From the NCBI RefSeq assembly GCF_009936135.1, contig NZ_CP047901.1, positions 60,181-124,180 of the forward strand: a stretch of 64,000 bases of DNA, given 5' to 3'. Below the pieces are notes generated by a model. The model was not told where the DNA came from. It searched no databases and saw only the letters and a program-made list of their open reading frames with translations. Below, piece after piece: positions 4,933-63,046 of the stretch. How positions within the stretch are numbered: position 1 is the first letter of the stretch; each line of letters starts with the position of its first letter. Both the position numbers and the translations under genes were made by a program. The stretch is from Candidatus Chazhemtobacterium aquaticus (GTDB lineage Bacteria > Patescibacteriota > Microgenomatia > UBA1400 > Chazhemtobacteraceae).

Positions 4933-4937
4933 CCACT

Positions 4938-5501
4938 TTACCTTGTTATCTCTAGCCTCTCAACCAACTCATTAGTTACTTTACCAATCACCTCCTCAAT
5001 TATAACTATCTCATTCTTCATAAACCTGTTTAGAACATACTCCTCGCCAATAATCCTCCTATCCTCCCGATTATCAACTCCAACTCTAACTCGCCAATAC
5101 TCATCACTACCCAACATCAAAGTTATGTTATTCAAGCCGTTGTGATCTTTAGGTCCTCGTCCTTTTTGAATCTTGTACTCTCCCAATCGAATGTCTAAAT
5201 CATCATGAATCACATAAATATCTTCACTCTCAACTTTATAAAAACTTGCAACCCTTTGCACCGACTCACCCGATCTATTCATATATGTTTCCGGCTTAAT
5301 CCATATCACCTCGTTCTCCCGACAAACCATAGCCTTCATCTTCTCTTCTCGCTTAAACTCACCACCCACCATTTTATCCACCACCATATAACCAACGTTA
5401 TGTCGTGTCATAAGATACTTTTCTCCCGGATTACCCAACCCAACCACCAATCTCATTGCTATAATACTGACTAGTAATACTCTGATTATAGCTTTACCCA
5501 C
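4938..5501 (-). CDS. pth: peptidyl-tRNA hydrolase
   Basis: MRLVVGLGNPGEKYLMTRHNVGYMVVD matches the Pth N-terminal signature. True start may be the internal Met at about 5456. Confidence 0.85.
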   Translation of the reverse strand: MGKAIIRVLLVSIIAMRLVVGLGNPGEKYLMTRHNVGYMVVDKMVGGEFKREEKMKAMVCRENEVIWIKPETYMNRSGESVQRVASFYKVESEDIYVIHDDLDIRLGEYKIQKGRGPKDHNGLNNITLMLGSDEYWRVRVGVDNREDRRIIGEEYVLNRFMKNEIVIIEEVIGKVTNELVERLEITR

Positions 5502-5520
5502 TCACTACTCCAAACTCTCA

Positions 5521-30951: not shown

Positions 30952-33294
30952 CTATAACTGTCCTCGTCTCTCTATCTCATTCTCAACCTCTTCCCTATCC
31001 TTACCGTATTTCAACCTAGACAACTCCTTAATCATCTCAGCCACTCGTCTATCCCCCATTCTTTTCTCCGCCTCAAGGTCCCTCCACACATTCATCGAAA
31101 ACGGTGGTACCGGTGTTCCCTCCACGATCGTCTTAACATAAGTAGTCTGAGCCGGGATATTAGTCAAATCAGACTCATTAAACACCGGCGCAAACTCCTG
31201 AGCCATAATGTTGGCATCAGAAACACCCATCCTAAACACCACCATGGTTCCCACATTACCAAAAATTGCATTCCTTACTTCCTCATCAATCTGGCTCACA
31301 AACTGGTTAGCCACCGTCAAAGAAAGGGCGTACTTTCTAGCCTCTGACAAAATCTGAGCAAAATCTGGTGTGGCAAAATTCTGAAACTCGTCCACATAGA
31401 AGAAAAAAGGCTTTCTTTCTTCTCTTGGCATATCTTGTCTTGATAAAGCTGCCGCCAAAATCTTTGGCACCAACACCAATCCCAAAAAGTTGGCATCCTC
31501 TTCACCTAACAATCCTTTTGATAACTTGAGAAACACAATCTTACCCTCATCCATTGCTTTGCGGAAATTCAAAGTAGACTGACTCTGGCCAATAATGTTT
31601 CTGATCATCTTATTGGTAATAAATCGGCCAAACTTACTCACGATATAGTCAAGAGTCTCACTCTTGTGAAACTCACTTGTCTGAGCAATCTGTTCAGTCC
31701 AGTACCTCTTCACAATCGGATCTTTAATTTTAGGCAACAGCTCCTGAACATATTTTTCGTTTTGCAATATCCTAGTTACCTCAATAAAGGTCGCCCCTGG
31801 TACCACGGCCGCAGTTAACATCGCATTTCTGATCGCATGCTCGAATCGAGGACCAACCATCCCCGTCTTATGCGGATCATACAGCTTATACATCAAATTA
31901 ATGATCGAGCTAGCCACAAAATGCATCTCCTCTTCATGATTTACTTCCAGCAAATTAAACCCCATCGGTCTCTCCGTATCTGCAGGATCAAAAACAATAA
32001 CATCCTCGGCTCTCTCCGGCGGCACCAACTCCAACAGCTCGTCAATACCCTCACCATGCGGCTCTAAAAAACAAACTCCATGACCAGCTTTAATATCCTG
32101 CAAAATCATCGATTTTAACAACTCAGTCTTTCCTGTTCCAGTCCTTCCCAGAACATACATATGTCTCATTCGATCTTTCTCGGTAATATGTATTGCCCTC
32201 TCCTGGCCGCGATAAACACTTTTACCTAAATACAAACCTGAAGTTGGAATACCACCAGTCGCCGGAGCCATTCTCGCTGGTAACCACACAATATGTGGCG
32301 TCTCAATCGTTTTATTCGGCAAGTGCCAGAGTGTTGCTAACTCATCGCTCGATAAAATTGAGTTCTGACCAAACATTGATTGATAGCGATAAATAAAATC
32401 AACCATAAACTGACTCTTCCACCCAATCGACTTCCCACTCAAACCATTCATCTCTGAATTAAACTGAGAAAAAGCCCCCTTAACGTTATTTAAGTTAGCC
32501 CTAGCTTGCTCTTGAGTCGGAGCCACACTCACCAGCCTAATTGTTGTTAAGAAACCAGGTTTACCCACCTTAGTATCCACAGCCTGCATATCTTCGGGTG
32601 ACATCTTAAAACTGGCCTTCTCAGGATCAGCCTCCGCTTTTTTCAAACCACTCAAATACTCCTTACCCGCTTTACTCCAATTCGAATCTGCTGGGGAAAT
32701 TAATACCTGAATTGCCGCCGCTTCACCTTCTCCCATCTTTGCCAGTGTTGCTGTTACCAAACTTAAAGGATCAGTCGCCAGCTCTTTATATGTTTTCAAA
32801 GGCATGTAGCTTTTATCCCTTACTACCAACTCAGCAAACTCAACCTTTCCCTCTTCACTAAAAATATTAGGTTCCTCAACCACTTTCACCTCGGCTCCTG
32901 GATACGCTCCCGAGATTTGCTTCTCTACTAATGAGACCAAACTCTCATGACATGACACATAAAACGCTATCGCTTCTTTCTTTGCCACAATTTCAAAACT
33001 CAGGTGCTGCTGAGCCTTAAATCTCTGCCAAAACCCACCTCTCTTGATTGAATACAGCGCTGCAAACATCTGTTCTGCCGCCTCAATTTTCACCTCATTA
33101 TCTCTTGGCACCAAAATCTGCATCACCACAAATCGTAAGCTTACCTCCTCTCGATTCTTATATTTAAACCACTGCATCATTGCCACTCCCAAACCAGCCG
33201 TTACTATCACCACTACCGACAATACTGCCACTATCCCAAAAACCATACTCACCCACTCCGTCATATTTGTTAACAAATCTATACCACTATTCAT
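30952..33294 (-). CDS. VirD4/TraG/TraD-like type IV secretion coupling-protein-type ATPase
   Basis: N-terminal TM helices. Walker [11 protein letters not shown]. Walker [12 protein letters not shown]. 780 aa. Architecture matches the T4CP / TrwB family. Confidence 0.55.
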
Positions 33295-40713: not shown

Positions 40714-43299
40714 ATGGCTTCAAAATCTCGATCAAAAAAAACTACCCCTCCCTCTCCGACACCAAAAACCAAGCAATCTCGAAAGATAAAGTTGTCTCAT
40801 TTTCTTTCCCTATCACGCCTCCGGCTTCCTCATCCTCAACTCCATCTCCCCCACCTCCAGCGTAAACACATAATAATCATCAGTATTCTGATAGCTACCT
40901 TACTCTTCACAATTGGCTTTATCCTCTTTAAAGATGTCCCCAATCCCACTTCTCTATCCAAACGTCCTGCTCCCGTATCAACTCAAATTCTTGATCGCCA
41001 TGGCCAACTTCTCTACGAGATTTACACCGACCAAAACCGTACTCCAGTCTCCATCAAAGACTTACCCGATCATCTCACCCAAGCTACCATCTCCATCGAA
41101 GACAAAAACTTCTACTCCCACCATGGCCTGGACTTAAGAGGCATTGCCCGAGCCGCTTTCAAAACCCTCACTGGCCAGCGTCTCGAAGGCGGATCCACCA
41201 TCACTCAACAATTGGTCAAAACTGCTCTGCTTAATGATCCGTCCCGCACCATCTCACGTAAAATCAAAGAGGCAGCTCTTGCCATTCTCACCGAAATTAT
41301 CTACTCCAAAGACCAAATTCTAGAGATGTACCTCAACAACGTACCCTACGGTGGCACTGCTTACGGCATCGAAACAGCAGCCCGTCAATACTTCAATAAA
41401 TCAGCCAAAGACCTCACTCTTGCAGAAGCCACCCTACTTGCCGGACTTCCCCAAGCCCCCACCCGTTACTCGCCCTTTGGTGCTCACCCCGAACTAGCCA
41501 AACAACGCCAAGAACAAGTCCTTCGCCGTCTCCACGAAGATGGATATATCACCTCAGAAGAACTCGAGACTGCCAAGAATGAATCACTAAATTATGCCAG
41601 CGTTAAATCAACCATCAAAGCTCCCCACTTCGTCCTTTGGATCAAAGACCTTCTCGTCGACCGCTACGGCGAAGATTTAGTCAACCTTGGTGGACTTAGA
41701 GTTACCACTACCCTAGACCTTAATCTGCAAGAATACGCCCAAGCCTCCCTATCAGCCGAAGTTGACAAGTTAGAACGTCTCAAGGTCGGTAATGGAGCCG
41801 CCCTAGTCACCAAGCCAAAAACCGGAGAAGTGCTTGCTATGATCGGCTCAAGAGACTACTTCGACAAAGAACATGACGGAGCTGTCAATATCACCCTCCG
41901 TTACCGCCAACCAGGATCCTCAATCAAACCCCTCAATTACGCCGTCGGACTCCTTAAGGGTTGGCCAACCTCCACCATGTATCTTGATATACCCACTTGT
42001 TTCACTCAGTCTGGCCAAAAAGCATATTGCCCAAAAAACTATGACAACACCTGGCACGGGCCGACCCAAATGCGCTTCGCTCTTGGTAACTCCTACAACA
42101 TCCCTGCAGTTAAACAACTTGCCCTCAACGGTCTTGACGCTATGATCGCCACTGCCTCAGCCATGGGCATCACTGGCTGGGACAATCCCGATCGCTTTGG
42201 TCTCTCACTCACTCTAGGCGGTGGAGAAGTCCGCATGATTGACATGGCAGTCGCCTTCGGCGTCTTCGCCAACTCGGGCGTCAAAGTACCCCTTAATCCA
42301 ATTCTAAAAGTTGAAACATATACCGGACAAGTTCTTGAAGAAACCAATCTTGAAACCATCGCCGACCTCGCCTCAACCTCGCCCCTCAACTGGGATGATT
42401 TCTGGAGCAAACCACGCTCATCCAACAACCCAACCACTCAAACCACCTCCGTTGATCTGGGAATTGCCTCACCCTATTCCAGTTTCTTTGATCGCTTACT
42501 TGGCAAAAAACCCGGCAACCAAACTCTTAACATCACCATTCCCGAAACTCAGGTTACCACCGTCCTCCCTGAAGAAGTAGCCTACATCATCTCCCATATC
42601 CTCCTCGACAACAATGCCAGGGTTGGCGCCTTTGGATCAAGCAGCGAGCTCGTCATTCCTGGACATACTGTCTCCGTCAAAACCGGAACCACCAACGATC
42701 TACGTGACAACTGGACCATTGGCTTTACTCCCGACTATCTCGTCACCACCTGGGTCGGCAACAACGATAACACCTCCATGAGCTACGTTGCCTCAGGTGT
42801 TACCGGCGCCTCGCCCATCTGGAACGATATCATGCGTTTTGTCCTAAAAGACGAAAAAGACCGCTTTCCCACTCGCCCCCAAGGTATCGCCGATGCCCAA
42901 GTCTGTACCCTAACTGGTCTGCTTGCCTCTCCCGACGCCCCTTGTGACACCCGAAACGAAATCTTCATTAAAGATCACCTCCCTCTCCCCTCCACCACTT
43001 TACCCACTCGCAAGCAAATCTGGATCAGGCGGGACACCAACCAACCCCTTCTTCCAGGCGAAGAGGTTATTGACCTCAATCTTGAAGAACACACCGTTGT
43101 CTCAGACCCCTTCACTCAAGAATTCTGCCTTGACTGCGCCTATCCCCAAGAAACCAAGCCCAACCCTGACAATCCCGATGAACAAATTCCCACGGGCAAA
43201 ATCTCCTACCCCACCTTCATCATCAACTACGATCTCTTCAAAGCTAAAAACATCACTCCCACCTCCTGGATCAATACCACTCAACCACCCATAAACTAA
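40714..43299 (+). CDS. class A penicillin-binding protein (bifunctional transglycosylase/transpeptidase)
   Basis: GT51 motifs EDKNFYSHHG and GGSTITQQLVK. Transpeptidase motifs SSIK, SYN and KTGTTND. N-terminal TM anchor. Confidence 0.9.
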   Translation: MASKSRSKKTTPPSPTPKTKQSRKIKLSHFLSLSRLRLPHPQLHLPHLQRKHIIIISILIATLLFTIGFILFKDVPNPTSLSKRPAPVSTQILDRHGQLLYEIYTDQNRTPVSIKDLPDHLTQATISIEDKNFYSHHGLDLRGIARAAFKTLTGQRLEGGSTITQQLVKTALLNDPSRTISRKIKEAALAILTEIIYSKDQILEMYLNNVPYGGTAYGIETAARQYFNKSAKDLTLAEATLLAGLPQAPTRYSPFGAHPELAKQRQEQVLRRLHEDGYITSEELETAKNESLNYASVKSTIKAPHFVLWIKDLLVDRYGEDLVNLGGLRVTTTLDLNLQEYAQASLSAEVDKLERLKVGNGAALVTKPKTGEVLAMIGSRDYFDKEHDGAVNITLRYRQPGSSIKPLNYAVGLLKGWPTSTMYLDIPTCFTQSGQKAYCPKNYDNTWHGPTQMRFALGNSYNIPAVKQLALNGLDAMIATASAMGITGWDNPDRFGLSLTLGGGEVRMIDMAVAFGVFANSGVKVPLNPILKVETYTGQVLEETNLETIADLASTSPLNWDDFWSKPRSSNNPTTQTTSVDLGIASPYSSFFDRLLGKKPGNQTLNITIPETQVTTVLPEEVAYIISHILLDNNARVGAFGSSSELVIPGHTVSVKTGTTNDLRDNWTIGFTPDYLVTTWVGNNDNTSMSYVASGVTGASPIWNDIMRFVLKDEKDRFPTRPQGIADAQVCTLTGLLASPDAPCDTRNEIFIKDHLPLPSTTLPTRKQIWIRRDTNQPLLPGEEVIDLNLEEHTVVSDPFTQEFCLDCAYPQETKPNPDNPDEQIPTGKISYPTFIINYDLFKAKNITPTSWINTTQPPIN

Positions 43300-43386
43300 C
43301 CACAAACGAACCCATAATATTGACATTTATCCTCCACTCCCCTAAACTATCCCCATCGTTCTTTCTGCTTTACAGGAGAAAACGGC

Positions 43387-43566
43387 ATGTCAACGATTGA
43401 TTACTCCAACATGTCATCCCAAGAGCTAGAACACCTTGCTCCAGATGATCCGGATGCGGCATGGGAGCTGTTTAACCGAATCCTTGATCAAGGTGAACCA
43501 CTAGGAGACCTGGAACCCGACGAGGCTCAGTCCCCTTCTTCTCCAGCAGTCGTTGTGAACGACTAA
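43387..43566 (+). CDS. small acidic hypothetical protein (59 aa), not in the supplied ORF track
   Basis: ATG preceded by AGGAG 7 nt upstream. Translates as MSTIDYSNMSSQELEHLAPDDPDAAWELFNRILDQGEPLGDLEPDEAQSPSSPAVVVND. Followed by a hairpin plus T-tract. Confidence 0.4.
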   Translation: MSTIDYSNMSSQELEHLAPDDPDAAWELFNRILDQGEPLGDLEPDEAQSPSSPAVVVND

Positions 43567-43584
43567 CCCGGAACAGTAAGAACA

Positions 43585-43623
43585 ACACCCCTGTGCCTAC
43601 CCGCCCAGGGGTGTCTTTTTTCT
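43585..43623 (+). terminator. rho-independent terminator-like hairpin plus T-tract
   Basis: acacccctg / caggggtgt 9-bp stem with a 12-nt loop, followed by cttttttct. Confidence 0.55.
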
Positions 43624-43642
43624 ACAAGGTACAATTATCACC

Positions 43643-44935
43643 ATGGAAATCACTCCCCCATCACCATCTCCAAAACCTTCTCGTGTTCATATTGGCCCTA
43701 TCATCCTTGTCATTCTCTCTCTCACAGCCTTCATTCTTGCCGGTATCATCTATCTAACTCGCTCCACTCCTCCACCCCTTCTCTCACCACTAGCCCAAAT
43801 TGCTAATCCAGTCGCCGATATATTAGGAATTAACCCAAAACATCCAGAAAAAATCATCTACGGCTTTCTACCTTTCTGGAACATGAATGAATCCGACAAT
43901 TTCAACTATCACCTACTCACCCATGTCGCCTATTTTGGTCTAGACTACAACCCAGACGGAACTATCCACAAAATCAGTGATGACAACACCCTTGAACCAG
44001 GTTGGAATCAACTCAACTCAAGCCAAGCCAATCAGGTTTTCCGTTCAACCAAATCCGCCCGAGGTAAGACTATCATTGTCATGCGAGCCATGACCCAAAA
44101 ACTAATTGAGTCACTTGTCAATAATCCCGATCACCGCCAACAGGTCATCGACTCAACCATGGAGATTCTTGATCAAAAAAACTTTGACGGGATCAATATT
44201 GATTTCGAATATGTTGGCACTCCAGACACTCAAACTAAAAATAACTTTTCTCTTCTTGTAAAACAATTAAGCTCTGTCTGCAAACAAACGCGTCCTGGCT
44301 GTGAAGTTAGTATAGATGTTTTCGCAGACTCAGCCGTTAAAAACCGAATTTGGGATTACGCCAGCATCACTCCTCACATTGACTACGTTATTATTATGGC
44401 CTACGACTTCTTCCGCTCATCCTCATCCCAAGCCGGACCCGTCGCCCCATTAAGAGGGGCATGCTCAGAATCATCATCAGACCAATCGACTTGTCTCGAA
44501 TATGACGTAGCCCAAACTATCGCCGACTTTTCCAAAATAATCCCTGCTGAAAAAATTATTCTTGGAGTTCCTTACTACGGCTATCAATGGCAAACCACCA
44601 CGTCTGAGTTCTTAAGCAACACCTATCAAAAAACCGGTGCCACAGCCACTTATAAACGCATCCAGGAACTCCTAACATCATCAAACCAAGAAGACAGATC
44701 AGCTATTCTCGGCCTCTCAACTCACTGGAACGACACCACCCTTACTCCTTGGATTACCTACACCGACACTGAAGGCAATATCCAACAAATCCACTACGAA
44801 GACGAACATTCCCTTTCTCTAAAATATGATCTGGTCAACCAAAGCAATATTGCCGGAATCGCTATCTGGGCTCTTGGATATGATGGACACTGGCCACAAC
44901 TATGGCAGCTTCTTCAACACAAATTTCTCAAATAA
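43643..44935 (+). CDS. glycoside hydrolase family 18 domain protein (chitinase/peptidoglycan hydrolase-like), membrane-anchored
   Basis: GH18 catalytic motif FDGINIDFEY (DxxDxDxE). N-terminal TM helix. Confidence 0.8.
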   Translation: MEITPPSPSPKPSRVHIGPIILVILSLTAFILAGIIYLTRSTPPPLLSPLAQIANPVADILGINPKHPEKIIYGFLPFWNMNESDNFNYHLLTHVAYFGLDYNPDGTIHKISDDNTLEPGWNQLNSSQANQVFRSTKSARGKTIIVMRAMTQKLIESLVNNPDHRQQVIDSTMEILDQKNFDGINIDFEYVGTPDTQTKNNFSLLVKQLSSVCKQTRPGCEVSIDVFADSAVKNRIWDYASITPHIDYVIIMAYDFFRSSSSQAGPVAPLRGACSESSSDQSTCLEYDVAQTIADFSKIIPAEKIILGVPYYGYQWQTTTSEFLSNTYQKTGATATYKRIQELLTSSNQEDRSAILGLSTHWNDTTLTPWITYTDTEGNIQQIHYEDEHSLSLKYDLVNQSNIAGIAIWALGYDGHWPQLWQLLQHKFLK

Positions 44936-45017
44936 CCAATCAAAAGAGATCAAAACACATCATCTCTAATATTTTCTCTCTTTATTTTCATCCCCTAACC
45001 TTGCTAAAATTGTCCCA

Positions 45018-47603
45018 ATGCGCCACACCGGACAGGGGTCATTGATAAACAGATCTCTATACCAACTCACCCATAAAATCACAAAATACTTTAATACCCT
45101 AAATCATCTATCAAACAAGCAACACAAAAATAAGCTGCCAATCAATCACAATCCTATAAATCGAGTCACTCAATTCCTCAAATATCTTGGTCGTCCTGTT
45201 TTCAACATTCTTCTCCTCCTCATCCTCTTCTCCAACTTTACAATCACCCAAACTCTCAACTTACTTGGTTTAATCGGTCGTGCCACCCTCAACCTCCCTC
45301 CTGCAATTTTAAACCTCTTTAAACACGTAAGCTTACCCCGTCTTTCCAAACCATCTATACCAAAGATTGGTCTTCCACACCTGCCTAATCTGAAGCTTCA
45401 TTTTTCTCAAAAAACTCATCACCCCATCCAATTCTCAATTCCTCAATTACCCCATTTACAACCACCCCACTTTCCCAAACTCCCTTCGCCTCGCATAAAA
45501 CTACGCCCATCTCTCCTCAATCTCTCCGTCCTCACGCTTATTTTCATCTCCACCTTTCTTTATTACTGGATTCTTAAAGATCTACCCTCGCCACGAAAAC
45601 TTTCAAATCTACAGCCGGAACTAACTACCCAAATCTTTGATCGACACGGTCGACTTCTTTACAAGATATATGACCAAGAAAAACGCACTCTAGTCTCTCT
45701 GGAAGATATCCCCCTCCATACTCGCCAAGCCACCATCGCTATTGAAGACAAGCACTTCTACTCTCATCAAGGCCTTTCGCTAAAAGGCATAATCCGTGCC
45801 ATTCAAAGAAACCTTACTACTCAAGAGATCCAGGGCGGTTCCACCATCACCCAACAACTCATTAAAAATACCTTACTTACAAACGAAAAAACCCTACAAC
45901 GCAAAATCAAAGAAGTTATTCTTGCTATTCACACCGAACTGATCTTCAGTAAAGACCAGATTCTCCAGATGTACTTCAACCAAGTTGGCTACGGTGGCCC
46001 AGCATATGGGATTCAGGAAGCCGCTCAACAATACTTTGCCAAAAATGTCTCAGATCTAAATCTAGCCGAGTCAGCCCTACTTGCTGGCCTACCGCAATCA
46101 CCCACTCGCTACTCACCTTTTGGTGCCCACCCAGAACTCGCCAAGCAACGTCAAATCCAAGTACTAGATCGCATGCTTGAAGATGAGTATATTACCCTTC
46201 AACAATATCAAGACGCGCTTAATACCCCCCTTACTTTCGCCCCACCCCAAACCAGTATTCTTGCTCCTCATTTCGTCATGTATATCAAAGACCTCCTCGT
46301 CTCATACTTCGGCGAAGAACTTGTCACCCACGGAGGTCTCCAAGTCCACACCACTCTAGACCTAGATATCCAAAACCTTGCCCAATCCATCCTCAATCAA
46401 GAGCTTGATCAACTTAAAAATCTCCATGTCAACAACGGAGCCGTACTTATCACCAACCCTCCTTCCGGCGAAATCCTAGCTATGATTGGATCAAAAGACT
46501 ACTTTGATATTGCTCACGATGGTCAGGTAAACCTAACTACCAGTCTTCGCCAACCAGGCTCAGCCATTAAGCCTATCAACTATGCTCTTGCTTTTGAAAC
46601 CGGACTGACTCCCTCAACCATTATCCACGACACTCCCATAACCTTTAATCTCCCCGGATCCAAACCCTACACTCCCAACAACTATGACGGACGTTTCCAC
46701 GGAGCCGTTACGCTCAGAACCGCTCTTGCCTCATCATATAATGTTCCAGCCATCAAGCTCCTAAATAGAAACGGGGTTATCCAAATGGCCAGATTAGCAT
46801 CACAAATGGGTATCACCACCTGGGACAACCCTGCTCGCTACGGCCTTTCTCTTACCCTGGGAAGTAATGAGGTCAAAATGACCGACATGGCTGAAGTCTA
46901 CGGTACCTTCGCCAATTTAGGTGTTCACGTACCCCTTAATCCCATCCTCTCCATCAAAGACTCCTCCGGTCAACCTCTTAAATTCAATCTCTGCAACCTA
47001 CCCCAAACCGATACCAATCAATCCACCTTCACTGTTCAAGCTGCCACTACAAATACCAACTGCCAACCACATCAAGTCATCTCACCAGAAACCGCTTATT
47101 TAATCTCCGACATACTCTCTGACAACCAAGCCAGAACTCCTGCATTTGGCTCTCGTTCAGTTCTCCACATCCCTGATTACCAAGTCGCCGTTAAAACCGG
47201 TACTAGCAATGATCTGCGTGACAACTGGACCATTGGCTATACACCTGAACTCCTAGTTGCTACCTGGGTTGGCAACAACGATAACTCACCCATGAGTCGC
47301 ATTGCTTCAGGCATCACCGGAGCCTCACCCATCTGGAGTCAAATTACCTCACAAATCCTTAAAAACACCGTTCCAACTACCTTCCCCACCCCATCCAACA
47401 TTGTCAAGGTTCCCATTTGCACTCTCACCAACACTCTTACCTGTTCTGCTTGCCCCTCAACTAGGTTAGAAACCTTCATCCAAGGCACCCAGCCCACTAT
47501 TTCCTGTACCACCGAACAAATCAACCAAGCTCTTGAAAAGAACACATCCTCACCTTTAGCCCAATCTTCTTTAGATCAAAACGATAACGCCTCCTCAGAT
47601 TAA
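45018..47603 (+). CDS. class A penicillin-binding protein paralog with long Pro/Leu-rich N-terminal extension
   Basis: EDKHFYSHQG, GGSTITQQLIK, SAIK, SYN and KTGTSND. The RYSPFGAHPELAKQRQ block is identical to the first PBP. True start uncertain. Confidence 0.85.
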   Translation: MRHTGQGSLINRSLYQLTHKITKYFNTLNHLSNKQHKNKLPINHNPINRVTQFLKYLGRPVFNILLLLILFSNFTITQTLNLLGLIGRATLNLPPAILNLFKHVSLPRLSKPSIPKIGLPHLPNLKLHFSQKTHHPIQFSIPQLPHLQPPHFPKLPSPRIKLRPSLLNLSVLTLIFISTFLYYWILKDLPSPRKLSNLQPELTTQIFDRHGRLLYKIYDQEKRTLVSLEDIPLHTRQATIAIEDKHFYSHQGLSLKGIIRAIQRNLTTQEIQGGSTITQQLIKNTLLTNEKTLQRKIKEVILAIHTELIFSKDQILQMYFNQVGYGGPAYGIQEAAQQYFAKNVSDLNLAESALLAGLPQSPTRYSPFGAHPELAKQRQIQVLDRMLEDEYITLQQYQDALNTPLTFAPPQTSILAPHFVMYIKDLLVSYFGEELVTHGGLQVHTTLDLDIQNLAQSILNQELDQLKNLHVNNGAVLITNPPSGEILAMIGSKDYFDIAHDGQVNLTTSLRQPGSAIKPINYALAFETGLTPSTIIHDTPITFNLPGSKPYTPNNYDGRFHGAVTLRTALASSYNVPAIKLLNRNGVIQMARLASQMGITTWDNPARYGLSLTLGSNEVKMTDMAEVYGTFANLGVHVPLNPILSIKDSSGQPLKFNLCNLPQTDTNQSTFTVQAATTNTNCQPHQVISPETAYLISDILSDNQARTPAFGSRSVLHIPDYQVAVKTGTSNDLRDNWTIGYTPELLVATWVGNNDNSPMSRIASGITGASPIWSQITSQILKNTVPTTFPTPSNIVKVPICTLTNTLTCSACPSTRLETFIQGTQPTISCTTEQINQALEKNTSSPLAQSSLDQNDNASSD

Positions 47604-56127: not shown

Positions 56128-56751
56128 CTATTCTGCCAACTCTGCTTCCACCGCTCGCAGTAAATCTCCAACTGCAGTCTGCTTACCGTTAACAAAAAAT
56201 GTCGGTGTCCCTCTCACTCCCAATCTCATAGCTTCCCCGTAATCATTCATCACTAGCTCCTTATGCCTTCCCTCTTCAAGTGACTCAACAAACATCTCCC
56301 GATCCAAGCCCAATTCTTCAGCATAATCAGATAGCTTAACCTCAATCTCTTTTTCTTCCGCCCATTCTCCTTGCCGTTCAAACAACAAGTCATGATACTC
56401 CCAAAACTTGCCTTGATCGTGTGCCGCTTCCGCTGCCTCAGCTGCAATCAAAGCATTCTTGTGAATACTTGACAGTGGCATATGTCTAAACACAAATCTC
56501 ACTCCCTCTCTATTCTGTACTTGTTTCACTAATCCCTGTGCCGCCTTACAAGCAGGACACTGAAAATCACTAAACTCCACCACCTCTACCTTAGCATCCT
56601 CCGCTCCCATTACCAACCTCTCCTCACCCGAAATCTCTTTGACCTCTCCACCCATCTGATCTCCAGTCATCCTACTCATCCCCAAGGCTACTACAATCAA
56701 CAGCAACAAACTTCCTCCTATCACTCCAAAAATCAACTTAGCATCGTTCAT
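56128..56751 (-). CDS. thioredoxin-fold DsbA-family thiol:disulfide oxidoreductase, membrane-anchored
   Basis: CxxC active site in EFSDFQCPACKAA. N-terminal TM helix. Confidence 0.8.
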   Translation of the reverse strand: MNDAKLIFGVIGGSLLLLIVVALGMSRMTGDQMGGEVKEISGEERLVMGAEDAKVEVVEFSDFQCPACKAAQGLVKQVQNREGVRFVFRHMPLSSIHKNALIAAEAAEAAHDQGKFWEYHDLLFERQGEWAEEKEIEVKLSDYAEELGLDREMFVESLEEGRHKELVMNDYGEAMRLGVRGTPTFFVNGKQTAVGDLLRAVEAELAE

Positions 56752-56791
56752 AAGTCCCTATCTTGCACTAAACTAATCCAAGATTCAAGTC

Positions 56792-57052
56792 TTACTTCGG
56801 CCAAATCTTCTCTCCTGTCTCAATATTGATTACCTCAATCGCCATCGTCGGACAAGACTGAGCTGCCAGCAACTTCTCCTCATCTACATTGCCATCCTGG
56901 TCAATAATATCCGCAATATTCTGCTCGTTTAGCTTAAAAGTAGCCGACGCGATTGCCTCACATGACGCTGCTCCAATACACTTATCATTAATTACCTTTA
57001 CCTGATACTTAGTCTTAACCGGCTTATCTTCTGATCCTTTTGAATAACTCAT
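56792..57052 (-). CDS. small ferredoxin, probably [3Fe-4S] type
   Basis: CIGAASC ... SCP pattern. This is CxxAxxC...CP, with the second Cys of a 4Fe ferredoxin replaced by Ala. Confidence 0.7.
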   Translation of the reverse strand: MSYSKGSEDKPVKTKYQVKVINDKCIGAASCEAIASATFKLNEQNIADIIDQDGNVDEEKLLAAQSCPTMAIEVINIETGEKIWPK

Positions 57053-57128
57053 TCTATTTATAAAACTTAAATTGTAACGCTACCCCATATCCTAATAAAA
57101 CTTAAGCGAGTCCACAATCCCCTTGTTC

Positions 57129-57851
57129 CTAAAAAAACTTCTCAAAATTAACCTCACTCTCACCCACTCCCAACGACATCAACAATTTACTAGTCTCCTC
57201 AACCATCTCTCTGCTTCCACATACATAAGCCTGCCAACTCTTTAGATCTCCACCATGATTCTTCAAGCAATCACCCACATGCCCATTACATCCTTTCCAA
57301 TTATCACCCCCCCTGCTTAAAACCACATCGATCTTAAAGTTTTCATACTCTTTTTCCAAATCCATCCATTCTTTCATCCAAAATAAATCCTCCTCATGCC
57401 TCATCCCCCAATATAGTCTCACTGGCCGAACCTCTCTCTTAATTTTTAACAAATCATTAATCATTGGCCGAAGTGGTACCACCCCACTGCCTGTTCCCAC
57501 CATCAAAAAACCCTTTGTGTCTTGCCTTAAATGCCCATCACTAACCACAAACTCACCCATTGGTCCCAGCACCTCAACCTCATCACCCACCTCCAAATCC
57601 AACACATAACGACTCCCCACACCCATCGGGGCCGTATCAACTACCAACTGTAACTCCTCTTCACCCGGATAACTTGCCAAGCTATAACTCCTTCTTTCCC
57701 CTTCTTCATTTACTTTAATGCTTACATACTGACCCGCCCTATACTCCAACCCTCCTCTTTCCAACCACAAAGACCAATAACTATTGGGCCACTTCTCTTT
57801 CCGTTTTACTCTCACTCGAACCTGTTTCATCTCCTTTGTATTTTCCATCAC
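57129..57851 (-). CDS. ferredoxin-NADP reductase-type FAD/NAD(P)-binding oxidoreductase
   Basis: FAD motif RSYSLAS and NAD(P) motif GTGSGVVPLRPMI. Confidence 0.8.
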   Translation of the reverse strand: MMENTKEMKQVRVRVKRKEKWPNSYWSLWLERGGLEYRAGQYVSIKVNEEGERRSYSLASYPGEEELQLVVDTAPMGVGSRYVLDLEVGDEVEVLGPMGEFVVSDGHLRQDTKGFLMVGTGSGVVPLRPMINDLLKIKREVRPVRLYWGMRHEEDLFWMKEWMDLEKEYENFKIDVVLSRGGDNWKGCNGHVGDCLKNHGGDLKSWQAYVCGSREMVEETSKLLMSLGVGESEVNFEKFF

Positions 57852-57853
57852 TT

Positions 57854-58381
57854 CTAACGCATACTATTCAAAATACTCATAAAAGTCTGCTCATATCCAT
57901 TCTGTGGCTTTAGGTCAAACTTTGTAAAAAACATCTGTACAATCAACAACCTATCCCCCTTAATCGTATATGCAAAATTACCTACTCTTTCCCATTTTAA
58001 ACTCTCCGTCGTTACCGCCCCCCTCATCTCCTTACCTATTACATCTCCTCCAAAAAACTGCTCAAATGAATATTTGCTCGCATCATAACAAAAAAGGGAA
58101 AACAAAGACCTTTTTTCCACTACCCCACCCACCATCTCGTCAAAAACCACCTGAGCCAAAGGCTCCTGCGACAATGACAGCTTAATATCCGACCTCACCC
58201 AATTCTTCGGATACTCAAACTCCACTCCACACTCACTACTCACATATCGATTAGACCCCAAGCCGCCACCCACACCTTTACTCCTCGCCACAATCACCAC
58301 CGCCAACCCCACCATTGCCACCAACGCCACCACCAAACCGGCGTAAGCCATCACCTTTGAACTACCTTTCATGACTACCAC
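57854..58381 (-). CDS. membrane-anchored/secreted hypothetical protein
   Basis: ORF with a GTG start and an N-terminal hydrophobic segment. Confidence 0.3.
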   Translation of the reverse strand: MVVMKGSSKVMAYAGLVVALVAMVGLAVVIVARSKGVGGGLGSNRYVSSECGVEFEYPKNWVRSDIKLSLSQEPLAQVVFDEMVGGVVEKRSLFSLFCYDASKYSFEQFFGGDVIGKEMRGAVTTESLKWERVGNFAYTIKGDRLLIVQMFFTKFDLKPQNGYEQTFMSILNSMR

Positions 58382-58397
58382 TCTATCATACTAACTC

Positions 58398-58406
58398 TGT
58401 TATACT
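58398..58406 (+). promoter_or_regulatory. extended -10 promoter element (TGtTATACT) upstream of the DGR template repeat
   Basis: tgttatact lies 17 nt upstream of the first TR base. No clear -35 element. Confidence 0.3.
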
Positions 58407-58422
58407 CCTACTAGTTTTAGGC

Positions 58423-58557
58423 TTACGCCTTCCTACGGGGAGCCAATTGGAACAACGGATCCAATGCCGGTGTCTTCACCCTCAACCTGAACAATACGCC
58501 CGACAACTCTGGAAACAACAATATTGGCTTTCGTTGCGCCGTCTCCCCCTAAGTAAT
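58423..58557 (+). repeat. DGR template repeat (TR), 135 bp
   Basis: Matches the reverse complement of 60272-60406 at 127 of 135 positions. All 8 mismatches fall on TR adenines. TR carries AAC codons in the target reading frame. Confidence 0.9.
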
Positions 58558-58672
58558 CAAACCTGCGAGATCTCCAGATCATTGATCCACCCATCAATCA
58601 CTGGAGCCGGGCACCATCCAATTACCAGCCTAAGACTCGTCATCCACTTTAAGGAGACAGAGATAGTAAAAG

Positions 58673-58709
58673 AGTAACCAGTCTCGGGATTAATCAACGG
58701 TTACTCTTT
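58673..58709 (+). promoter_or_regulatory. perfect 9-bp hairpin in the TR-RT spacer (DGR RNA structural element candidate)
   Basis: agagtaacc - 19-nt loop - ggttactct, between the TR 3' end and the RT start codon. Confidence 0.4.
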
Positions 58710-58721
58710 TACACTTCTATC

Positions 58722-59855
58722 ATGTTTGACCGCATCATCTCTTTTAACAACCTGCTTTCCGCCTATTACAAAGCCAGAAGACACAAACGTTTCCAAAAAC
58801 CTCTCCAAATCTTCGAGTTTAATCTCGAAAAAAACCTCATCAACCTCCAAACCAATCTCGCCACCAATCAATACCGCCCCAGAAAATACCACCGCTTCAT
58901 CACCTTTGAACCCAAAAAACGTCAGATCTCAGCCCCTGTTTTTATCGACCGCATCCTCCATCACGCCATCATCACCGTTATTGAACCCATCTTTGAAAAC
59001 GTTTTCATTAACCACTCCTTCGCCTGCCGCAAGGGTAAGGGCACCCACTTTGGTATGCTCCAAGTCTCCCAAGTCTATCACCAGATCCGTCAGCATCACC
59101 CCCGCTTCTACTGCCTTAAATGCGACATCAAAAGCTATTTCGCCAGTATTAATCATCAGATTCTTCTCCGCCTGCTATCAAAACACATCTCCTGCCCCAA
59201 AACCATCAAATTACTCACCACTATCATCACCAGCTACCACGACACACCCGGCTGTGGCATCCCCATCGGCAATCTTACCTCGCAGCTATTCGCCAATATC
59301 TACCTCCACCCTCTCGACCTGTACTTAACCAAAACCCTTAAACTCAAAAACTACTTTCGTTACATGGATGACTTTCTTGTCATCTCTCCCGACAAAGAAT
59401 ATCTCCTTGCCCTCCGTCGTCAAATCAACACCTTTTTAACCACCAATCTCAAACTCACCCTCCACCCCAAGAAAAACAATATCTTTAGGGCTGATCGTGG
59501 CCTGGACTTCCTAGGCTATCTCATCAAACCCCATCAAACCACCATCAGAAAAAAGACCCTCCGCCGTTACAAAAAACGTCACAAAAAACGCCTCAAGAAA
59601 CTAAAAACCTTAAAACACCTCCTAAAAAACCACAACCAGCCCCAGCAACTCTCCCTCTTCGCTCCCCCACAAAATCTAACCGACCCGGATCTATCAAACC
59701 AAATTACCGCTCTCCAACAAAAACTTCGCTCCTCCCGTAATTCCTTCAAAGGCTTCCTCCGTTACTCCACCCACCAACGTCTATCTTCTGGTGGTGTAAC
59801 TATCAACAACATCACCATCCCCAACATCTTCCCCAAGAAACCCAACAAGCCCTAG
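58722..59855 (+). CDS. DGR-type reverse transcriptase
   Basis: RT motifs, including YMDD in FRYMDDFLVIS. DGR-specific IGxxxSQ motif (IPIGNLTSQLFANIYL) in place of the group II intron QG. 377 aa with no maturase or endonuclease domains. TR lies immediately upstream. Confidence 0.9.
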   Translation: MFDRIISFNNLLSAYYKARRHKRFQKPLQIFEFNLEKNLINLQTNLATNQYRPRKYHRFITFEPKKRQISAPVFIDRILHHAIITVIEPIFENVFINHSFACRKGKGTHFGMLQVSQVYHQIRQHHPRFYCLKCDIKSYFASINHQILLRLLSKHISCPKTIKLLTTIITSYHDTPGCGIPIGNLTSQLFANIYLHPLDLYLTKTLKLKNYFRYMDDFLVISPDKEYLLALRRQINTFLTTNLKLTLHPKKNNIFRADRGLDFLGYLIKPHQTTIRKKTLRRYKKRHKKRLKKLKTLKHLLKNHNQPQQLSLFAPPQNLTDPDLSNQITALQQKLRSSRNSFKGFLRYSTHQRLSSGGVTINNITIPNIFPKKPNKP

Positions 59856-60190
59856 AGCCTACTCACCCTCATCCACGCATTTAGCAATCTCCCAATCTCA
59901 TTTATTTTCTCCGCTACTACCCCGTATTTCTTAATCGACAAAAACCCTACATCCTTGGCTACTCTCACATATACCCGAAACAAATCAAGATTTACTGAAA
60001 TCTTCTTCTGTTCCGCTCTCCGATCAGGTTTACTGTTAGCAATAACCGTTAGTCTAATCATTTCCATATTAGTTTTTAGCAAAGCATTTGATAACAAAAA
60101 CCGTTGCGCTTTAGGAAACCTCGCCACCATCCGATGGGTATACAAGTACAGGTCATATATTTTCTGAAAGATTATCAGCTGATCAATCAT
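59852..60190 (-). CDS. avd: Avd-like accessory variability determinant (four-helix-bundle, TIGR02436-like)
   Basis: 112 aa from the internal Met, with GGGGGTGAG SD-like sequence 6 nt upstream. IYDLYLYTHRMVARFPKAQRF...L pattern is typical of Avd / 23S-IVS four-helix-bundle proteins. Directly downstream of the VR-bearing gene. Converges on the RT with a 4-nt overlap. Confidence 0.65.
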   Translation of the reverse strand: MIDQLIIFQKIYDLYLYTHRMVARFPKAQRFLLSNALLKTNMEMIRLTVIANSKPDRRAEQKKISVNLDLFRVYVRVAKDVGFLSIKKYGVVAEKINEIGRLLNAWMRVSRL

Positions 60191-60215
60191 ATTTTTCTCA
60201 CCCCCCCAAACCGAA

Positions 60216-60238
60216 GGCTCCGACTCAAGGTCGGAGCC
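60216..60238 (-). promoter_or_regulatory. perfect 9-bp hairpin (ggctccgac-tcaag-gtcggagcc) downstream of the VR; candidate DGR homing hairpin and/or transcript terminator
   Basis: Located 34 nt after the VR end, between the target stop and the avd start. No U-tract follows on the transcribed strand. Confidence 0.5.
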
Positions 60239-60271
60239 AGATAACAAGATTTTAAAAGATAGCTACGCCAA

Positions 60272-60406
60272 ATTACTTAGGGGGAGACGGCGCAACGAAA
60301 GCCAATATTGCTGCGCCCAGAGTTGCCGGGCGTATTGTTCAGGCTGAGGGTGAAGACACCGGCATTGGAACCGTTGTTCCAATTGGCCCCCCGTAGGAAG
60401 GCGTAA
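60272..60406 (-). repeat. DGR variable repeat (VR), 135 bp, at the 3' end of the target gene
   Basis: See TR. Encodes ...FLRGANWNNGSNAGVFTLSLNNTPGNSGRSNIGFRCAVSP*. Differences from TR give N->S, D->G, N->R and N->S, plus 3 silent changes. Confidence 0.9.
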
Positions 60407-62667
60407 TCAATATTACTCGACCCTCCCTGATAATATCTACCCACCCTCTTATTCAAATCCCAACTACTATCACTCGGTTTCAGTACGTCATAACTTAAAA
60501 CACCATAATCACTCACACTCGACCAATCAACCCAACTTGTACCCCCTCCCACCGGCTTATTAGGCCCCCTCACCACATCATCCGTCCATTCCCATACATT
60601 ACCCGCCAGGTCCCAGATCACCTCGCCATTAGATAAATAATGAGTTCGTCTTTGGGTGGCACCATTGCCACAGGTTGGATCAACATCTTTAGTGACCGTG
60701 CCATAGCAGCCTTGGGAATCGTCAGTCGAAGCTTGAAGCGCCAGAGCCGGGCCGTTATCATTATGACCCGCCACCAAATACTGACTTCCCGGACTATTAC
60801 CACACCCTGTCCCGTTTAAAGCACACCAGTTACTCCCCAACCTCTCCAGATTTCTCGCTATCGTCATCCACTCGTTATTAGTCACCAAATGCCACCCCTG
60901 CGTCTGGCAATAAGTCCTGGCATCTACCCCCGATCCGCCAGCATTCTGAGCAATTCTGGCAATCGGTGCCCCTTGAGGCGTTGACACTACATCTCCTCCC
61001 ATATCCTCTATACATCTACACCCCGACAAAATATTTCCCCACGTATCATAACCAGTGTTGCATGACGCATAAGCACCGCTTGCCGTATCCCCCACCCCGT
61101 CACCATCAGCATCACACTTAGCCTGATACTTCATCACACAAAAATCACTCGTTCCATATAGCGGATCACCTGGTACATGAACAAAACCACTAGGACACGC
61201 CACCTGAGCATTAGCAGGCTCTAAAGACTGTGTTTTACCAAACTTAACCGCCGCACCAATTACATCCACATACACCTCGAACAAAGTACGATCATAAGCA
61301 TAAATCAGCACATCATCCATCTTACCGTTAAAGTAATTAGGCGTCGCCCCTGCTCGACCAACAAACACCGACCCCCCCGTTACCGACCATAAAGACAAAG
61401 CCGGCGATGACACCAGTCGGCCGTCTACATAAAAACTGGCATTGACCCCATCATATGACACCGCCACATTAGTCCACTCTCCCGCCGATATACCAGCCCC
61501 GCTGCTCGTCACCACCGACCCTCCCACTGGCCCGAAGCTCAACTCCCCTCCGCTCGTCATCTGGAAGGTATAACCGTTCGTGTGAGGCTGCGACACAATC
61601 GCATAATTACCCAAGGAAGACACATAAACCCAAGCCGAGATCGTCATCGCCCCGCCTAACTGAAACCGTCCGTGATTACCCAGATCAACATAGTCATCAC
61701 TTCCGTCAAAAAGTAAGGCATAATTGTCATTACCCGCTACCCACTGGCTGTTATCACTCGGGAAATTCACCAATGCCGCTCTGGTATAGTTTTCCAGCCT
61801 GTTCATCGTCTGCAAACCAGAACCATCATCAAAACCTAATCTCACTACCGGCCTGCCTCTTTCCATCGCATAAGCCAACGACCCTTCATCTCTCGTCCCT
61901 GAGAATACTCTTACTTCATCAATCGAACCGTCCAGATAACCAGTATAACTGCCAGCCCCCGTTTTTGTTACACCTAAATAAAAATCAGCCGCCGTATCAC
62001 TCAGTGCCGTCCCCACCGACGAAACACTCCCTTCTCTAACCCCATTCACATACAAATATATGGTACCCGGACTGGTTGCGTTATAGTAACCCTGCAACAA
62101 GTACCAAACATTGGGCAGTATCTGCGTCGTTCCTGTTGCTGTCTTAATCGCCGCCGCTGTCCCGTCAGGCGACACCTGGAACTTGGGCCATACCCTGCCG
62201 TCTGCATCAGCCTGAATTATCAACCGATAACTCCTTATATCAAGCGTCTCATCCCACTTGGCCACCACCGTCTGAAACGCACTCTCAGATGCTGATACCG
62301 TATCAAACTTCACCCACGCCTCTACCGAAAAACTCCCTGTCTGGGAAAATACAGCCGTGTCCAGAGCTATCCCGTAATCATCAACACCATCAAACTCAGC
62401 TTTTCTCCCATATTTGGCTTCCGCCCCAATCCCCGTCTTCGTCCCCGTCACCCCACTCCCTGTCGTTGTCAACGTCAAGTCATTAACCCCCACCCGATCC
62501 TTAATCAAAGTCGTTCCATCCCCCTGAACGCTCTCAAAATCGTAATAAACCACCGGCTCGTCCCACACACTCCAATCAGCCCACACTACCCCCGCCCAGC
62601 CCAAAAACCACCAAAAAACCAGCAAACATCCCAACACCTTCCCGATCCTATTTTTCCCACATTCCAT
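60277..62667 (-). CDS. DGR target (variable) protein: signal peptide, two LamG/concanavalin-like domains, C-terminal FGE-sulfatase/C-type-lectin-fold domain carrying the VR
   Basis: N-terminal hydrophobic MECGKNRIGKVLGCLLVFWWFLGWAGVVWA. LamG-like blocks (FSVEAWVKFD..., MTISAWVYVS...). FGE hallmark GNVWEWT, ending in GFRCAVSP with the VR in the last 43 codons. Confidence 0.85.
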   Translation of the reverse strand: MECGKNRIGKVLGCLLVFWWFLGWAGVVWADWSVWDEPVVYYDFESVQGDGTTLIKDRVGVNDLTLTTTGSGVTGTKTGIGAEAKYGRKAEFDGVDDYGIALDTAVFSQTGSFSVEAWVKFDTVSASESAFQTVVAKWDETLDIRSYRLIIQADADGRVWPKFQVSPDGTAAAIKTATGTTQILPNVWYLLQGYYNATSPGTIYLYVNGVREGSVSSVGTALSDTAADFYLGVTKTGAGSYTGYLDGSIDEVRVFSGTRDEGSLAYAMERGRPVVRLGFDDGSGLQTMNRLENYTRAALVNFPSDNSQWVAGNDNYALLFDGSDDYVDLGNHGRFQLGGAMTISAWVYVSSLGNYAIVSQPHTNGYTFQMTSGGELSFGPVGGSVVTSSGAGISAGEWTNVAVSYDGVNASFYVDGRLVSSPALSLWSVTGGSVFVGRAGATPNYFNGKMDDVLIYAYDRTLFEVYVDVIGAAVKFGKTQSLEPANAQVACPSGFVHVPGDPLYGTSDFCVMKYQAKCDADGDGVGDTASGAYASCNTGYDTWGNILSGCRCIEDMGGDVVSTPQGAPIARIAQNAGGSGVDARTYCQTQGWHLVTNNEWMTIARNLERLGSNWCALNGTGCGNSPGSQYLVAGHNDNGPALALQASTDDSQGCYGTVTKDVDPTCGNGATQRRTHYLSNGEVIWDLAGNVWEWTDDVVRGPNKPVGGGTSWVDWSSVSDYGVLSYDVLKPSDSSWDLNKRVGRYYQGGSSNIDYAFLRGANWNNGSNAGVFTLSLNNTPGNSGRSNIGFRCAVSP

Positions 62668-62695
62668 CTCTATTTAAGTATATCACCGCCGACCA

Positions 62696-63046
62696 TCACT
62701 CCACCAACGCCCTAATCGCAGACAAAGGCAACAACACACATTTCATTCTCGCTGGATTTACCTCTCCCATTAACTCAACCACCACCCTCCCATCAAGCTC
62801 TCTCACCTCATCAACCTTCATACCCTTAACCTTATCACTTAACATTGAGGCTGCTGCCGTTGATAATGCACACCCCACCCCTTTAAACCGAATATCTCTG
62901 ATCACTCCTCCATCCACCTTAGCGTAAAACTCAACCATATCTCCACACGTTGCATTACTCTGCTTACTTCTTTTATTAGCCCCTTTAAGATCACCAAAAT
63001 TCCTTGGATTTCTGGCATGATCAATAATTTCTTCTGAGTACTCCAT
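62696..63046 (-). CDS. sufU: SufU/IscU-type Fe-S cluster scaffold (NifU N-terminal domain family)
   Basis: DHARNPRNFG, ATCGDMVEF and GVGCALSTAAASM conserved Cys contexts. Confidence 0.85.
   Translation of the reverse strand: MEYSEEIIDHARNPRNFGDLKGANKRSKQSNATCGDMVEFYAKVDGGVIRDIRFKGVGCALSTAAASMLSDKVKGMKVDEVRELDGRVVVELMGEVNPARMKCVLLPLSAIRALVE

Follow-up and report, generated by a model that had tools for sequence, protein, structure and literature searches.

An apparently active diversity-generating retroelement in a Ch65-like Microgenomates bacterium

The closest described counterparts of the locus analysed here are the diversity-generating retroelement (DGR) of the Bordetella phage BPP-1, for which structures of the ribonucleoprotein are available (bRT–Avd–TR/Sp RNA; PDB 8UB7–8UBF), and the DGRs of bacteria of the candidate phyla radiation (CPR), which are well documented (PMC5758913, PMC8144416). 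The locus lies in a stretch of 64,000 nt of DNA (the window). The DNA comes from a Ch65-like bacterium of the Microgenomates (CPR) that falls in the Ch65/ADurb.Bin238 lineage, and the genes around the cassette are chromosomal housekeeping genes. We conclude that positions 58722–59855 of the window very probably encode the reverse transcriptase (RT) of a complete, chromosomal and currently active DGR of this bacterium.

In the BPP-1 element the components are ordered mtd–avd–TR–brt on one strand, where TR is the template repeat, and the diversified protein is a tail fibre. Two residues of its RT (bRT), R74 and I181, were shown to promote adenine mutagenesis, and the sequence [I/V/L]GxxxSQ of DGR RTs, as against QGxxxSP, is a published signature (PMC7826257). 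The BPP-1 element also needs RNA downstream of TR (PMC6182149; bioRxiv 10.1101/2023.10.23.563531). For the CPR elements, 90% of the CPR set of Wu et al. (2018) have the order TR-(avd)-RT, with architecture B3 having avd between TR and RT, and 48 DGR architectures are described in that work (PMC5758913).

The window element is similar to the BPP-1 DGR in the [I/V/L]GxxxSQ and YMDD motifs of its RT, the equivalents of R74 and I181, the Avd partner, the structured spacer between TR and RT, the variable repeat (VR) at the C-terminus of a C-lectin-fold protein, the GC-rich 3′ block, the hairpin after VR and the adenine-only changes in the window's own TR/VR pair. The two differ in that the window element is carried by the chromosome of a CPR bacterium rather than by a phage; TR and RT are convergent with avd and the target gene; the RT has 49 aa more than bRT and bears an extension at its C-terminus that is specific to the clade (approximately residues 300–377; a helix and a β-hairpin); the target is a LamG-lectin surface protein instead of a tail fibre; and no sequence difference is visible within the repeat between the initiation of mutagenic homing (IMH) element and its TR counterpart, IMH*. 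With the CPR DGRs (the Wu 2018 CPR set and B3; Roux 2021 clade 2) the element shares its cellular, CPR-encoded nature and an avd gene that is reverse to TR and RT. It differs from them in having an extra conserved neighbour, here called gene X, and in its target, where a signal or anchor accompanies two LamG domains. In contrast to B3, avd is downstream of RT in the window, and both the window and its close relatives (records L001, L002 and L085–L088) have the order TR-RT-(avd), tail to tail. This order is unusual, yet it is inside the plasticity described by Wu et al. The RT belongs to a well-known family and the DGR is textbook-complete and of the CPR type, leaving the general picture of DGRs unchanged.

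Reverse transcriptase and repeat pair

The RT translation includes GCGIPIGNLTSQLFANIYLHPLD, within which I182-G-N-L-T-S-Q188 is found (segment IPIGNLTSQLFANIYL; the string IPIGNLTSQ is present in the translation), and NYFRYMDDFLVISPD, which provides FRYMDDFLVIS with the YMDD box at residues 214–217. RVT_1 was the sole Pfam domain (residues 65–266, E 4e-24), and no GIIM/maturase, HNH or primase domain was detected in the RT at E≤0.01. The sequence-only reading of the locus had described a 377-aa RT with a YMDD box and no X/maturase, endonuclease or primase domain, the stop codon of which overlaps a convergent avd gene by 4 nt. All of this was borne out. The overlap consists of the palindrome CTAG (59852–59855) that is common to the ends of both genes: the RT stop codon TAG is at 59853–59855, and the avd stop codon is the reverse complement of 59852–59854. 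Although the RT strand is very C-rich and long spurious open reading frames (ORFs) are frequent there, the domain match and the homologues identify the RT ORF as a true gene.

None of 30 homologues, the most distant with 42% identity, departs from the window RT in P-I-G-N-L-T-S-Q, RYMDDF, YMDD or R67. When the residues were aligned, R67, I182 and Q188 of the RT corresponded to R74, I181 and Q187 of bRT, respectively, and a group II intron RT in the same alignment read PQGGNLSP at the motif columns. Given the invariance among the homologues and the alignment with bRT, IGxxxSQ is not a chance match, and the earlier claim that it marks a DGR RT as opposed to a group II RT is upheld.

Among RTs of known structure, that of the Bordetella-phage DGR resembles the window RT most, in sequence as well as in fold. 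The best match in a sequence search of the PDB was the RT of the DGR ribonucleoprotein, 8ub7_A (328 aa; 174.6 bits, E 2.6e-50), while the best group II intron RT was 7uim_D with 76.8 bits; retron, Drt and G2L4 RTs scored below 7uim_D. An AlphaFold2 model of the RT, made from 30 homologues (mean pLDDT 90.8), was compared with the PDB using Foldseek. The first four ranks were the DGR ribonucleoprotein RT structures 8ub7, 8ubd, 8ubc and 8ubf, of which 8ub7 gave an E-value of 3.7e-23 and 34% identity over 311 aligned columns, with a target-normalised TM-score of 0.83. The next match after these four was the GsI-IIC group II RT.

An RT of a group II intron, or of the group II-like (G2L) type, beside a coincidental repeat would account for part of these data. 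The closest relatives of DGR RTs are group II RTs (PMC5758913), which here were the second-best structural and sequence matches and have the fingers–palm–thumb fold in common with the window RT (e.g. GsI-IIC RT, 6AR1). The top NCBIfam match was the TIGR04416 group_II_RT_mat equivalog, so that the best single match in that database is nominally to a group II model, which counts against a DGR RT. However, the score of 151 bits is half of the model's cut-off of 300, and the alignment ends ahead of the maturase part. A group II model tops the list because there is no DGR-RT model among the NCBIfam matches. The GIIM and HNH domains of a group II RT are absent, the motif is IGxxxSQ and not QGxxxSP (PMC7826257), and the DGR RT structure 8ub7_A scored ∼100 bits above the group II RTs. 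There is also no ribozyme: intron RNA domains flanking the ORF had been named in advance as a finding that would speak against a DGR, and Rfam gave no group II intron domain at E≤1 in the 6.5 kb from 56500 to 63000. Finally, an adenine-specific TR/VR pair and Avd adjoin the RT. Taken together, we give the group II explanation next to no likelihood.

A retron, Abi or DRT/UG-type defence RT that happens to be located beside a lectin gene would fit the PADLOC results, where the RT matched generic RT, UG/DRT and RT-Cas1 models (UG/DRT and RT-Cas1 with E 1e-35 to 1e-37), and the titles of some public homologue records, which read ‘retron-type reverse transcriptase’. These titles are generic automatic labels, however, and the NCBIfam retron and Drt models were all far under their cut-offs (retron_St85, 62 against 235; Drt3a, 82 against 200; Drt2, 73 against 390). 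Retron and DRT structures ranked well under the DGR RT, and no msr/msd or other non-coding RNA family was found by Rfam in the same 6.5 kb, the search of which returned just two sub-threshold chance matches and no DGR RNA family. The adenine signature of the repeats and Avd are, in addition, DGR-specific. A defence RT is thus very improbable. The comparison with RT family profiles that the sequence-only reading had called for agrees with a DGR RT: all the group II, retron and Drt models scored below their cut-offs.

The class of the RT was decided by its context. TR and VR form a 135-nt inverted repeat with 94% identity. All eight mismatches between them are at TR adenines, against an expected fraction of 35/135, the share of adenines in TR (p ∼2e-5), and the copy upstream of RT has the template role in the sense of the target gene. 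No second VR was found anywhere in the 64,000-nt window. The avd product scored above the cut-offs of both Pfam bAvd (E 9e-21; 74.8 bits against 40) and the NCBIfam DivGenRetAVD equivalog (89 bits against 80). Together with the repeat pairs of the relatives, these observations are decisive, and the original interpretation of the protein as a DGR RT stands.

Among the matches listed, the closest RT homologues (54–62% identity) are from Levy-, Roizman- and Shapirobacteria and other Patescibacteria, and are annotated merely as RNA-directed DNA polymerase. The matches listed from genome contigs were mostly to distant relatives, with L027 as the one close relative, and a look-up of the exact RT sequence gave no match. 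All the close relatives examined have adenine-biased repeat pairs. For more distant relatives in genomes, again among the matches listed, 60 of 80 have a nearby repeat pair in which at least 80% of the mismatches fall on adenines in one of the copies. In a phage collection, matches at 40–48% identity were to the RTs of Vibrio, Bordetella, Bacteroides and crAss-like phages. In L001, L002 and L085–L088, RT and avd meet tail to tail in every case, overlapping by up to 53 nt or separated by as much as 221 nt; TR is 140–190 nt upstream of RT, and the LamG target has ∼775–800 aa and can be on either strand.

Cassette components and arrangement

All of the cassette parts are present at the locus: TR, structured spacer RNA, RT, Avd, a VR in a C-terminus with the C-lectin fold, and a hairpin after VR (Table 1). 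TR, spacer and RT are on the plus strand; avd and the target gene with its VR are convergent with them on the minus strand, with avd between the target gene and RT. The true avd start is probably ATG 60190 rather than TTG 60247, since L091, a record with 98% identity, calls a protein of 112 aa. The overlap with RT is unaffected by this choice.

Table 1. Coordinates of the DGR components and of gene X; positions refer to the window unless a record is named
Feature	Position	Strand	Remarks
DGR reverse transcriptase gene	58722..59855	+	ATG start, 377 aa (ORF listing)
Template repeat (TR)	58423..58557	+	135 nt, 35 adenines, 11 AAY codons in VR frame; upstream of RT, same strand
GC-rich block GCGCCGTCTCCCCC	58536..58549	+	TR 3′ end, position of IMH*
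Structured spacer RNA	58558..58721	+	164 nt, TR end to RT start
Spacer hairpin P1	58572–58606	+	covariation consensus
Conserved unpaired motif AAUUACCAGCCUAAGAC	58620–58636	+	spacer RNA
Spacer hairpin P2	∼58639–58658	+	covariation consensus
Spacer hairpin P3	58666–58712	+	12–14 bp, ends 9 nt before RT start codon
avd	59852..60190	−	112 aa from ATG 60190; mechanical ORF reaches TTG 60247
GC-rich hairpin GGCUCCGAC-CUUGA-GUCGGAGCC	60216..60238	−	9 bp, 33 nt downstream of VR end
Variable repeat (VR)	60272..60406	−	last 43 codons and stop of target gene; inverted repeat
IMH-like GC block in VR	60280–60293	−	within VR
Target gene	60277..62667	−	796 aa, VR at C-terminus
Gene X	57854..58372	−	172 aa from ATG (175 aa from GTG 58381); divergent from TR-RT
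Gene X homologues	L001 2083–2679; L085 4050–4622; L086 4030–4578; L087 4082–4651		
Gene X homologues	L088 4122–4676; L089 6935–7597; L096 6001–6546; L097 5503–5973		

Between TR and RT there is nothing but the structured spacer (164 nt). The single-sequence fold of the spacer gave z = −3.9 and beat all 200 shuffles. Covariation was examined in an alignment of the window with eight other loci of the clade (nine loci). Compensatory changes occur at 21 of the 26 base pairs in the consensus, which includes a closing stem as well as the hairpins listed in Table 1. In total, 89.7% of the spacer cells were paired, compared with 42–53% when the partners were slid by 1–3 columns, and the observed covariation score was reached by none of 500 column shuffles. 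The spacer fits the need of the BPP-1 element for downstream RNA in kind only. As a covarying structure, it offers a second, independent RNA for comparison with that of BPP-1.

The GC-rich block at the 3′ end of TR was compared with IMH sequences following the description in PMC5758913. The four adenines that are 3′ of this block were unmutated in every VR allele. The hairpin downstream of VR (the role of repeats and hairpins in this position is described in PMC5758913 and PMC3240598) could be the target-site hairpin of the DGR, the terminator of the target gene, whose pattern it also fits, or both. Nothing similar to it was found after TR.

The target protein has a hydrophobic signal or anchor at its N-terminus, as read from the translation, followed by two Laminin_G_3 (ConA-like lectin) domains (Pfam, E 5e-44). 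Its C-terminus, residues 582–793, matches the FGE-sulfatase/C-type-lectin fold with 27.3 bits against a cut-off of 23.3, and it is this part that carries VR.

A ‘hypothetical protein’ of 49–53 aa is called antisense to TR in the window (58433–58597, minus strand) and in three other records (L090 5791–5940, L091 4305–4466 and L095 1745–1894). It is most likely a spurious call from the G-rich strand.

The steps by which the element would diversify its target can be proposed on the model of the BPP-1 element. A transcript of the plus strand containing TR and the folded spacer would be bound by an RT–Avd complex, and the spacer RNA would prime cDNA synthesis. The RT would copy U, C and G faithfully and misincorporate opposite A, aided by R67 and I182 (bRT R74 and I181). 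The mutagenised cDNA would then replace VR on the opposite strand, where the GC-rich block and the downstream hairpin would define the 3′ boundary and identify the recipient. The expected outcome would be variation at up to ∼31 adenine positions (11 AAY codons) in what may be the ligand-binding tip of a LamG-lectin protein that is secreted or surface-located.

Variation of the repeats among strains

Activity of the element was assessed from a comparison of strains that comprised six records of the lineage together with L002 and L084. In the window, the eight TR–VR mismatches are all at TR adenines, as noted above. The proportion was 13/15 in L090 (96.6% nucleotide identity to the window), 14/16 in L091 (98.3%) and 17/18 in L002 (90%), so that for the four VR alleles pooled, 52 of 57 mismatches are at TR adenines. 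The four alleles are all distinct and each has its own set of altered adenine sites. Within TR positions 12–100, 28 of the 31 adenines are altered in at least one allele.

The TR sequences behave differently from the VRs. TR is invariant in L084 and L090–L095 except for one C/T site. The TR of L002 has three non-adenine changes relative to the window, and these reappear in the VR of L002 itself. Strains with 96–98% genome identity have identical TRs and completely different VR alleles. Read from these sequences, the pattern indicates repeated TR-to-VR transfer with adenine-specific changes in closely related strains. The DGR element is apparently active, because TR is near-constant while the VRs of strains with 90–98% identity carry differing adenine-site changes.

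Several observations weigh against this conclusion or against parts of it. Activity is deduced from assembled consensus alleles of different samples, which give the pattern expected of an active element and are not proof of it. The VR of L091 retains a C where the TR of L091 has a T, and five of the 57 pooled mismatches are at non-adenine sites. It follows that some of the changes are not simple adenine mutagenesis, or that the assemblies are consensus mixtures. As regards the cassette itself, RT runs towards avd and the target gene, unlike the textbook cassette with its genes on one strand; the 3′ ends of TR and VR are identical, so that no IMH/IMH* difference is visible within the repeat in this strain; and no sigma-70-like promoter stands out upstream of TR. 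The scan for promoters and terminators found sites no more frequently than in shuffled sequences, and it pointed to no promoter for the TR RNA.

Some of these points would suit a fossil cassette, in which the RT is a DGR RT by descent, the VR differences are old and no homing takes place today. The window VR is changed at just eight of its 35 adenine positions, and the non-adenine mismatch of L091 looks as if the last homing event predated a change in TR. Against this, the components (RT, Avd, TR and spacer) are intact, and the RTs of the strains differ by only 3–4 residues with the catalytic positions all kept. An old set of differences also sits poorly with genomes of 96–98% identity that have the same TR and entirely different VR alleles. 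In two independent assemblies, furthermore, the contig ends inside TR (L093 1–126 and L094 1–126, equivalent to window 58423–58548), which is consistent with an effect of the repeat or of heterogeneity in the population. We therefore consider a fossil cassette improbable, and favour an element that is still active.

L092 was left out of the comparison: its VR is full of indels, its RT is uncalled and its coverage is 3.8x, and we took this to be assembly noise. Taking L092–L094 together, the TR/VR repeat and VR heterogeneity seem to break or corrupt assemblies at this locus. When metagenomes were scanned with a sequence pattern for more VR alleles, two contigs only were recovered, L083, which is the contig of L002, and L084, which is a TR-only fragment.

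The locus represents a complete, apparently active DGR in a CPR lineage with a closed genome of 0.8 Mb (Ch65); the paper on the Ch65 genome does not mention a DGR (PMC7143001). As near-identical metagenome strains have a constant TR and differing VRs, they make a convenient natural system for DGR turnover, and the locus may be useful for following such turnover in ultra-small, presumably episymbiotic bacteria.

A conserved neighbour and the genome setting

Gene X is situated on the other side of TR from RT. Its product, which gave no Pfam match, combines a transmembrane anchor with an extracytoplasmic domain of PsbP/Mog1-like fold; two of its cysteines are invariant. A homologue with 34–51% identity adjoins the DGR in 11 of 11 independent loci of the RT clade that were examined, in gene orders that include (X)-TR-RT-(avd), target-RT-avd-TR-X (L089) and target-avd-TR-RT-X (L097), and the wider neighbourhoods of these loci differ. 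X was not found at 80 distant DGR loci (L003–L082). The family is tiny, with 56 matches in a search of 5.8 billion proteins and 34 in a full HMMER scan of 1.84 billion representatives. The window protein matches one from ‘Microgenomates group bacterium ADurb.Bin238’ at 100% identity.

We regard X as a candidate clade-specific DGR-linked gene, with membership of the cassette suggested by the conserved linkage. If extracytoplasmic, it would work with the variable surface protein and not with RT. On this basis it can tentatively be suggested, with rather more doubt than confidence, that the Microgenomates DGR lineage is a distinct cassette variant in which X is a fifth conserved component, acting outside the cell with the diversified LamG-lectin (e.g. 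as an anchor, chaperone or co-receptor). If this were true, X would be the first case of a DGR-linked gene with a role for the target protein rather than in the retrohoming machinery. In any case, this conserved PsbP-like neighbour gives a testable starting point for asking how the cell uses its variable surface lectin.

Two other identities for X were considered and rejected. It is not a second target, given the single VR of the window. The CH1 protein described by Wu et al. (2018) has 160–169 aa, is acidic and is found only in DGRs without avd (PMC5758913); X always co-occurs with avd and is set apart from CH1 by that description.

Genes of toxin–antitoxin or defence type accompany some of the related cassettes, either between the DGR components or directly beside them. 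AbiEii and a 192-aa gene are located between avd and the target gene in L088/L098, Fic is between avd and RT in L096 (3390–4448), and AbiEii is upstream of the cassette in L087 (2394–3026); the adenine signature of TR and VR is kept in each case. In L096, pilin genes of a type IV secretion system are directly beside gene X. L097 (GCA_000398025.1), a single-cell genome, has avd-TR-RT-X on one strand, which is the canonical rather than the convergent arrangement. The RT of this record is called as two plus-strand fragments of 143 and 178 aa (4495–5516), which might reflect a frameshift in the RT or an error of sequencing.

The window shows a marked strand asymmetry. The GC skew of the plus strand is ∼−0.5 in nearly every 2-kb bin of positions 1–64000. 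The GC3 skew is ∼+0.75 for minus-strand genes and ∼−0.75 for plus-strand genes, and so tracks the DNA strand and not the direction of the genes. An asymmetry of G and C between the strands has already been published for Ch65 and its relatives (PMC7143001). RT is among the few genes on the plus, C-rich strand, and G, A, V, D and E make up 12.7% of its residues, compared with 18–24% in homologues of 55–62% identity.

Two other regions of the window were noted. A 780-aa protein with matches to TrwB/TraG (type IV coupling protein) is encoded at 30952–33294 on the minus strand, in surroundings that are otherwise housekeeping genes. At 40714–47603 on the plus strand, two paralogous class A penicillin-binding proteins of 861 aa flank a GH18 glycosyl hydrolase. 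All three genes of this group lie on the C-rich strand and run opposite to the prevailing direction of genes.

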